The position numbers and the translations under genes are program-made. From an uncultured Candidatus Saccharibacteria bacterium (GTDB taxonomy: Bacteria > Patescibacteriota > Minisyncoccia > Phycocordibacterales > DATDWN01), in NCBI GenBank assembly GCA_964576615.1, contig CAZNUU010000002.1, forward strand, positions 27,428-91,427: a stretch of 64,000 nucleotides of DNA, read 5' to 3'. Of the stretch, positions 4,173-4,415 are shown one piece after another; the first letter of the stretch is position 1, and every line of letters begins with the position of its first letter. Under the pieces are notes generated by a model that was given only the letters and a program-made list of their open reading frames with translations, was not told where the DNA came from and did no database searches.

Positions 4173-4415
4173 TTACTTCTTCGTCTTCGGAGGCCCTTGC
4201 ATCCAGTGACACGATCCGCAACGAGCTTCCCAGGTCTTCGTATCGATCTCCGTGAACTTCACCGCCTTGCCATCAAGATCAAAAGCCCACTCGCCTGTGT
4301 CAGAGCTGACGGCACGGGGTGCTTCAGGTGTTGGGGCAGGACGAATTACTGATTTCGGTTTTGCGGCCGTACACGCACCTGTCATCAGAAGAAAAACGAC
4401 GAGATAGAATCGCAC
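4173..4415 (-). CDS. Small GC-rich secreted/lipoprotein-like protein with C-terminal CxxCH motif (cytochrome c-like heme motif), sitting where rimM normally is
   Basis: 80 aa. GTG start with SD GGAGGTGA, signal-like MRFYLVVFLLMTGAC, C-terminal ARCGSCHWMQG. GC and GC3 far above neighbours. Confidence 0.5.
   Translation of the reverse strand: MRFYLVVFLLMTGACTAAKPKSVIRPAPTPEAPRAVSSDTGEWAFDLDGKAVKFTEIDTKTWEARCGSCHWMQGPPKTKK

Follow-up and report, generated by a model that had tools for sequence, protein, structure and literature searches.

What kind of gene, if it is one, lies between khpA and trmD in an uncultured Candidatus Saccharibacteria bacterium? The question concerns a stretch of 64,000 nucleotides (contig CAZNUU010000002.1, positions 27,428 to 91,427; the whole stretch is called the window below) and, within it, a small GC-rich open reading frame (ORF), here called ORF80. 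A preliminary description of this DNA placed ORF80 in the position of rimM and saw in it a possible c-type cytochrome. The reading favored here, with slightly less than even confidence, is different: ORF80 would be a genuine lineage-specific (orphan) accessory gene whose product is a small exported peptide, possibly anchored to lipid, with a CxxC(H) motif that forms a disulfide or holds a metal, in an interval that varies throughout the clade. We infer its expression, export, and function from the letters. The features on which this reading draws are these:

4173..4415, minus strand: ORF80, 80 amino acids with a GTG start; product MRFYLVVFLLMTGAC followed by TAAKPKSVIRPAPTPEAPRAVSSDTGEWAFDLDGKAVKFTEIDTKTWEARCGSCHWMQGPPKTKK (from the ORF list)
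4419-4426, minus strand: Shine-Dalgarno (SD) sequence GGAGGTGA, 8 nt that pair perfectly with the canonical 16S 3' tail
4371..4415, minus strand: signal-peptide-like N-terminus MRFYLVVFLLMTGAC, residues 1-14, plus the codon of the lipobox-type Cys15 (4371-4373), from reading of the sequence
4206..4220, minus strand: CGSCH motif, residues 66-70 (a CxxC pair, then His), from the sequence
4433..4461, minus strand: putative ORF80 promoter, TTGATT, a 17-nt spacer, and TTTAAT, from reading of the sequence
4143..4164, minus strand: GC-rich 9-bp hairpin AAGGAGCGC-TTAT-GCGCTCCTT, directly 3' of the ORF80 stop and without a T-run, found as a self-complementary BLAST match

The preliminary description had named a GC-rich ORF of 80 amino acids at 4173-4415, a GTG start behind a strong SD, a signal- or lipoprotein-like N-terminus, and a C-terminal CGSCH, and all of these are present. 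The GC content is 0.54; the window as a whole has 0.41 and the genes on either side have 0.38-0.40. The GTG is the earliest start codon following an in-frame TGA, and the GGAGG core of the perfect 8-nt SD lies 6 nt 5' of it. CGSCH occupies residues 66-70, with 10 residues remaining to the C-terminus. The signal-like N-terminus holds as a description: M-R (a single positive charge), a hydrophobic core of nine residues (FYLVVFLLM), and M-T-G-A-C with Cys15, followed by a Pro/Ala-rich linker and a tail of about 40 residues that carries CGSCH. The PROSITE lipobox rule PS51257 asks for a positive n-region, a hydrophobic h-region, and [LVI..][ASTVI..][GAS]C with the Cys at 15-35; the ORF80 N-terminus agrees with the rule, at its lower length limit (Cys15). 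The MR- start, hydrophobic core, M-T-G-A-C15, and Pro/Ala-rich linker resemble those of many Gram-positive lipoproteins. Unlike bacterial lipoproteins of this type, however, ORF80 has a signal at the short extreme, with one positive charge, and belongs to no homologous lipoprotein family.

Which of these features exceed chance? By estimate, a 377-nt stretch of about 50% GC holds roughly 0.6 open frames of at least 80 codons, and an antisense ORF at 4110-4352 (plus strand), likewise of 80 amino acids, overlaps ORF80; its length is no better than chance. The six-frame translation of the window contains six CxxCH motifs, or about one per 21,000 codons; a frame check places the other five outside plausible genes, and the rate corresponds to roughly one chance occurrence in real genes per window. 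Among control ORFs about 6% have a loose lipobox match and 12-23% a hydrophobic N-terminus, so that the hydrophobic, lipobox-like N-terminus of ORF80 also is no better than chance. The SD is another matter. SD sequences are rare in this genome, with a 5-mer SD at 3 of 60 proxy genes of the window. GGAGGTG is over-represented in the window, being found 12 times where 4.6 are expected. The perfect 8-nt SD before the first start is the sole ORF80 feature that is clearly beyond chance.

The remaining support comes from the interval itself. In an independent Logan assembly of SRR12313479 (L001) the aligned stretch of about 430 nt spanning the slot is 100% identical, so the slot sequence is not an assembly artefact. 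The length of the khpA-trmD gap was compared in 112 non-redundant related loci; it runs from 6 to 1415 nt (median 173) and is below 150 nt in 54 of them, and the slot is empty in about half of the clade. Its architecture was read from sequence in the window and in L002, L003, L010, L011, L013, L016, L024, L044, L084, and L087, and follows a common layout: the khpA stop lies within or adjoins a strong intrinsic terminator; an AT-rich leader carries a long SD (GGGAGG, GGGGAGGG, GGAGGGTGGAG, AGGAGGT, and similar); a GC-enriched ORF follows, and after it a GC-rich hairpin; and a TGTGTTATAA-like box adjoins the trmD ATG. Set between a terminator and the next promoter-like site, the slot cargo is an autonomous unit, outside the rpsP operon. 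The hairpin at 4143-4164 resembles in position and form the post-cargo hairpins of L016, L024, and L087.

The cargo falls into several families, which differ from one sub-clade to another: four-Cys proteins of about 60 amino acids (family A; L016, L024, and L087), anchored proteins of about 140 amino acids (family B; L010, L013, L044, and L084), and signal-anchored proteins of about 216-265 amino acids (family C; L011, L012, and L021). The two nearest relatives carry tiny SD-led hydrophobic ORFs with Cys, of 52 amino acids in L002 and 51 in L003 (MRTVLVTIIFVMFGSC...). The cargo families are under purifying selection, with the signature of coding sequence (codon position 2 > 1 > 3): L044 and L084, with TrmD 94% identical, have cargo 70% identical and codon-position identities of 0.81/0.85/0.62. 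Divergence can be far greater, as in L010 and L044, where TrmD is 95% and the cargo 30% identical. More generally, the cargo of L010, L013, L044, and L084 (and of L016, L024, and L087) goes down to 26-42% identity where the adjoining TrmD stands at 88-95%, and even its third-codon-position identity is lower than that of the flanking genes. Such fast divergence hints that selection is diversifying, that recombination swaps alleles, or that the mutation rate is raised locally. The same gap in L155 (an attribution made from sequence) holds, at 492-854 on the plus strand, an ORF of the '23S rRNA-intervening sequence protein' or bAvd-like kind (E=3.9e-42 and 5.3e-10); diversity-generating retroelements use bAvd-like proteins as accessory proteins.

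Is the SD a mark of the cargo as such? In the related loci an SD precedes 21 of 42 cargo ORFs, compared with 0 of 87 khpA, 0 of 110 trmD, and 2 of 96 rpsP genes, and all 21 SD-led cargo ORFs are GC-richer than their flanks, by 11 points on average.

If ORF80 is the orphan accessory gene that these data point to, its transcription would start from a weak sigma-70-like promoter of its own, and its translation at the GTG by way of the perfect SD. The product would be exported by the Sec pathway, and would either receive a lipid at Cys15 or be cut after Ala14. What remained would be a surface peptide of 66 residues, consisting of the Pro/Ala-rich linker and a C-terminal module of about 40 residues, in which Cys66 and Cys69 would be joined by a disulfide or would hold a metal ion. 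It probably would act at the cell envelope, for example in contact with host or phage, a role that fast evolution would fit. The 54% GC at all codon positions, set against a host GC at third codon positions of 0.37, and the strong SD point either to recent arrival from an unsampled GC-richer pool or to selection that resists AT bias.

A number of observations weigh against the accessory-gene reading. The GC content of ORF80 is flat across the codon positions (0.56/0.54/0.54), and its codon likelihood under the host model lies about 3 standard deviations below host genes (its frame nonetheless scores best of the six under that model). Neither the chance-level length nor the antisense ORF of the same length favors it. 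A scan for consensus promoters did not flag the putative promoter, whose -10 hexamer has T at position 2. In the loose SD test the antisense controls score 12 of 40, compared with 21 of 42 for the cargo (p=0.075), so the clade-wide enrichment is only suggestive. No other lipobox protein was noticed among those window ORFs whose N-termini were read. AlphaFold (AF2, single-sequence) gives ORF80 a mean predicted local distance difference test (pLDDT) score of 54.5; helix 3-12 (block pLDDT 79) is the only segment of fair confidence, and no confident fold appears elsewhere, the surroundings of CGSCH included. With no homologue, finally, ORF80 offers no evidence of coding from conservation or substitution pattern. 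(A scan of 10 membrane ORFs in the window showed neither Lgt nor LspA.)

ORF80 matched only itself in a word-indexed search of 5.8 billion clustered proteins and in a full phmmer search of 1.84 billion representative proteins; itself aside, it had no relatives in back-translated scans of metagenome and viral contigs, nor by tblastn in phage and plasmid DNA. The family libraries Pfam, NCBIfam, PHROGs, and PADLOC returned no match. Against 160 related loci, neither ORF80 nor the slot gave anything significant by tblastn, tblastx, or blastn, the slot cargo families included. Orthology with the slot ORFs of L002 and L003 was considered as evidence and rejected: local DNA alignments do not stand out from shuffled sequence (p=0.18 and 0.93), and BLASTP gives E=0.66. 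MAFFT hinted at a common 5' part, '(A/G)TGCGAT ... TGACAG.TGC.TGT'. Because synonymous sites of the flanking genes are near saturation at the distance between the window and L002, ORF80 may have replaced the L002 and L003 peptides, or it may be their orthologue, diverged beyond recognition. A repeat or mobile element at the slot also was rejected, as the slot shares only its own hairpins with the rest of the window.

The strongest alternative is that ORF80 does nothing: it may be a chance frame in GC-rich foreign or decaying DNA, or else a remnant, the 5' part of what was once a longer cargo gene. We consider this a serious possibility, nearly as probable as the favored reading. A remnant might, for instance, retain the signal, the linker, and the first 40 or so residues of an exported protein, cytochrome-c-like or thioredoxin-like, whose gene lost its 3' part by a deletion beside trmD. 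Total orphanhood, atypical codon usage with flat codon-position GC, and a structure prediction of low confidence are what such DNA would yield. Moreover, GC-rich DNA gives long ORFs on both strands at the slot, at 8019-8596, and at 13569-14051, and the ORF at 14714-15280, in another GC-rich island of the window, is as complete an orphan as ORF80. The stop lies only 51 nt from trmD and CxxCH near the very end, as if the cut fell at the start of a class I cytochrome c domain. PDB searches with the whole of ORF80 and with its C-terminal 44 amino acids gave non-significant matches only; the best one for the C-terminal part aligns EIDTKTWEARCGSCHWMQGPP to a heme site of the cytochrome c subunit 8gy3_A (E=1.4), an alignment that rests on the CGxCH letters themselves.

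Against a non-functional ORF80 stands first the SD: by estimate, an SD that is perfect over 8 nt and ideally spaced from the first start codon has a chance of about 1e-4, although a remnant would keep it. The terminator, SD, ORF, and hairpin are laid out as in the relatives' cargo, which is under purifying selection. The downstream frames, read by eye, show no cytochrome- or thioredoxin-like continuation, and no significant match to either kind of family was found. Useless GC-rich DNA, moreover, should erode under the inferred AT-biased mutation; a non-functional GC-rich ORF80 must therefore be recent. A thioredoxin or TlpA-type oxidoreductase (TlpA/ResA/DsbE), or a remnant of one, was tried separately and rejected, with no thioredoxin-like match in the PDB, Pfam, or NCBIfam, even at E<=10. 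ORF80 does have a CxxC, but what we take to be a loose resemblance to a thioredoxin-like motif, F-D-L-D-G-K-x-V ... W-x-x-x-C-G-x-C, was supported by no search.

Far less probably, ORF80 is a small membrane-active peptide similar to type I toxins, or some other small protein inserted in the membrane, silenced by mRNA structure or antisense RNA. Type I toxins are mostly shorter than 60 amino acids. Like Hok, ShoB, and ZorO, ORF80 is a small SD-led intergenic ORF with a hydrophobic N-terminus, and the slot peptides of L002 and L003 (51-52 amino acids, strongly SD-led, with a single hydrophobic helix and a charged tail) come closer to that class. In the fold of lowest free energy, the SD is paired with a distant CCUCC, close to the 3' end of ORF80; the fold of the region, however, is only as stable as shuffled sequence (z=0.00). 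Rfam gives no gathering-level match at the slot. Sub-threshold matches to the antitoxin RNAs ohsC and OrzO, antisense to the ORF80 leader (4429-4500, plus strand; 27 bits, where gathering scores are 50-60), consist of the khpA terminator hairpin alone, and an antitoxin RNA of this kind was rejected. ORF80 thus differs from known type I toxins in its 80 amino acids, its hydrophilic Pro-rich tail of 65 residues, and its want of a supported antitoxin RNA, and a hydrophobic stretch of about 10 residues before a lipobox-like Cys is a better fit to a signal peptide than to a membrane helix.

The cytochrome reading of the preliminary description fares worst. On this reading, ORF80 would be an exported minimal c-type cytochrome or heme-binding lipopeptide, with heme bound covalently to Cys66 and Cys69 and with His70, perhaps also Met72, as ligands. 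Export-like signal and CxxCH do stand together in one ORF, and Gram-positive bacteria do have lipoprotein cytochromes c, such as Bacillus CccB/c-551, that share lipobox signal, linker, and CxxCH with ORF80. In those proteins, however, CxxCH lies near the start of a heme domain of about 80 residues with a distal Met ligand; in ORF80 only 10 residues follow it, sequence and fold similarity are lacking, no maturation system is in evidence, and no predicted fold would enclose a heme or supply a distal ligand. There is no homology to any cytochrome c family (in Pfam, for example Cytochrom_C and Cytochrome_CBB3; in NCBIfam; or among the 1.84 billion proteins), the CxxCH frequency is at chance level, and a scan of 10 membrane ORFs in the window showed none of Ccm, ResB, and CcsA. 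In the literature, a single Parcubacterium is reported to have unusual respiratory capacity (PMC5220378), which counts for a cytochrome; against it, absence of the electron transport chain is inferred to be ancestral in Patescibacteria, with oxygen reductase genes in only 0.6% of their single-cell genomes (PMC7507113). All told, a cytochrome is very improbable. The preliminary description had named a fallback for the case that heme maturation and homologues were both missing, namely a metal-binding peptide or a non-coding GC-rich insertion; that fallback applies, in the form of a metal- or disulfide-type peptide or a non-functional GC-rich insertion, and the evidence does not decide between the two.

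How does ORF80 relate to its neighbors, and does it replace rimM? The flanking features are:

4882..5286, minus strand: rpsP (ribosomal protein S16) with a C-terminal extension; Pfam PF00886, E=1.2e-16
4499..4810, minus strand: khpA-type KH-domain gene, the upstream boundary of the slot; Pfam PF13083 KH_KhpA-B, E=9.5e-22
4463..4501, minus strand: khpA intrinsic terminator, a 17-bp stem followed by a T-run, from the terminator scan
3375..4121, minus strand: trmD, the downstream boundary of the slot; Pfam PF01746, E=2e-31
4122..4133, minus strand: promoter-like box TGTCTATATAA adjoining the trmD ATG, from reading of the sequence; relatives have TGTGTTATAA(A/G) there

The order and strand of rpsP, the KH gene, and trmD are those of the rpsP-(KH)-rimM-trmD-rplS operon of other bacteria. 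Unlike that operon, the locus has no rimM, khpA ends in a strong terminator, and trmD apparently has its own promoter. The khpA terminator, whose hairpin itself is kept in the alignment with L002, would separate rpsP-khpA from ORF80 in transcription, and the box at 4122-4133 may be the promoter of trmD. After trmD the ORF list has no ORF of the size of rplS (judged by size, not by Pfam); the next large ORFs are an ATP-binding cassette transporter pair. The closest relative, L002, has KhpA 98% and TrmD 81% identical to those of the window. No closer one emerged from metagenomes, where the best TrmD match is 71% identical, compared with 81% in the genome set. The TrmD relatives all belong to Parcubacteria/Paceibacterota and include Zambryskibacteria-like metagenome-assembled genomes; the organism of the window is likewise placed in that group of the Candidate Phyla Radiation (CPR).

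The preliminary description was right that no rimM lies between the KH gene and trmD, and Pfam finds none there; that ORF80 stands in place of rimM is misleading. No rimM lies between khpA and trmD in any of about 110 relatives, and the RimM Pfam families match none of 33 gap ORFs of at least 80 amino acids in related loci. RimM is reported to be missing from most CPR genomes (PMC6744442) and to be nearly absent there (PMC12641178), so its absence is a known trait at phylum level. ORF80 itself has no Pfam match to the RimM N-terminal or PRC-barrel domain; it is not a stand-in for RimM.

Two further observations concern trmD. An extended -10-like box, TGTGTTATAA or TGTGGTATAA, is kept in L003, L007, L009, L016, L024, L087, and the window; it ends about 6-10 nt 5' of the trmD ATG, and no SD is present, which suggests that the trmD mRNA of the clade may be leaderless or have a very short leader. 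Within trmD, GC-rich palindromic insertions lie in frame at about 3990-4040 and about 3893-3945, and in an alignment with 7 relatives they are absent from 6-7 of these. The insertion peptide GNKPRRQKGSGSRPKASG is shared with L002; TKSAKGGSSDQRSWFR occurs only in the window, and its DNA aligns with a copy at 18009-18051 (peptide KSGAKPSDNSVARSSEAGFREK), in a DNA polymerase III alpha-like (DnaE-like) ORF at 15525-18773, and with another at 108-150. These GC-rich elements of about 45-60 nt, in frame within essential genes, resemble Rickettsia palindromic elements; their core motif was not found in 161 related loci.

Beyond the slot, the window is a mosaic in which core genes of about 37-41% GC alternate with about 11 short islands of 48-57% GC. 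The islands hold small ORFs, often on both strands:

7601-8500: GC-rich island
10801-11600: GC-rich island
13601-14000: GC-rich island
14801-15200: GC-rich island
18801-19600: GC-rich island
21201-21600: GC-rich island
28801-29600: GC-rich island
30801-31600: GC-rich island
34001-34800: GC-rich island
37601-38800: GC-rich island

A 5-mer SD precedes 7 of the 11 window ORFs with a GC content of at least 48%, compared with 2 of 53 AT-rich ORFs (Fisher p=1.7e-5). Recognisable island genes are a NUDIX gene (13569-14009) and a protein consisting of the ClpX zinc finger only (21159-21668); eight other island ORFs scanned with Pfam had no match.

The window also contains repeats. A 62-nt segment occurs at 8455-8516 and 11364-11425 (84% identical), in each case directly 5' of a GC-rich island ORF with a hydrophobic N-terminus (8078-8458, and 11008-11451 if read from an internal ATG at about 11367); this suggests a common leader with SD, or paralogous cassettes. 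Two families of intergenic repeats of about 100-120 nt, one at 3137-3257, 7513-7633, and 35564-35660 and the other at 3267-3372, 62014-62119, and 30432-30467, are GC-rich, contain internal hairpins, are 76-100% identical, and occur in both orientations and on both sides of the trmD-RNase R region. They look like miniature inverted-repeat transposable elements.

ORF80 might be one of a distinct class in this CPR lineage: small ORFs that are GC-enriched, SD-led, and extremely quick to evolve, that in many cases begin with a membrane anchor or a signal-like segment, and that form autonomous units in fixed 'safe-harbour' gaps, with AT-rich, SD-less core genes on either side. We regard so broad a claim as speculative, and rather unlikely as it stands. 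The khpA-trmD gap is such a site over more than 100 genomes. The variable regions of CPR/Patescibacteria genomes hold orphan small proteins, exported or membrane-bound, that resemble ORF80 in small size, hydrophobic N-terminal signal or anchor, lack of a family, strain or species specificity, and position between core genes. ORF80 differs from them in its site, a defined clade-wide interval from khpA terminator to trmD promoter, and in that the cargo there is GC-richer and SD-led, whereas the core genes have no SD.

Taken alone, ORF80 matters little: it is one further orphan small ORF, and ordinary in kind. More interesting as a lead is the surrounding pattern, in which fixed gaps of a CPR genome that is AT-rich and poor in SDs house cargo that is GC-rich, SD-led, and quick to evolve. 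Attachment to hosts is the presumed way of life of CPR bacteria, and no part of their genomes is less well understood than the small surface proteins specific to single lineages; the khpA-trmD interval offers a tractable site for studying how such genes originate and turn over. If the broader class is real, it would imply that a separate unsampled mobile gene pool, or localised diversification and gene birth, feeds the surface proteome of these episymbionts.

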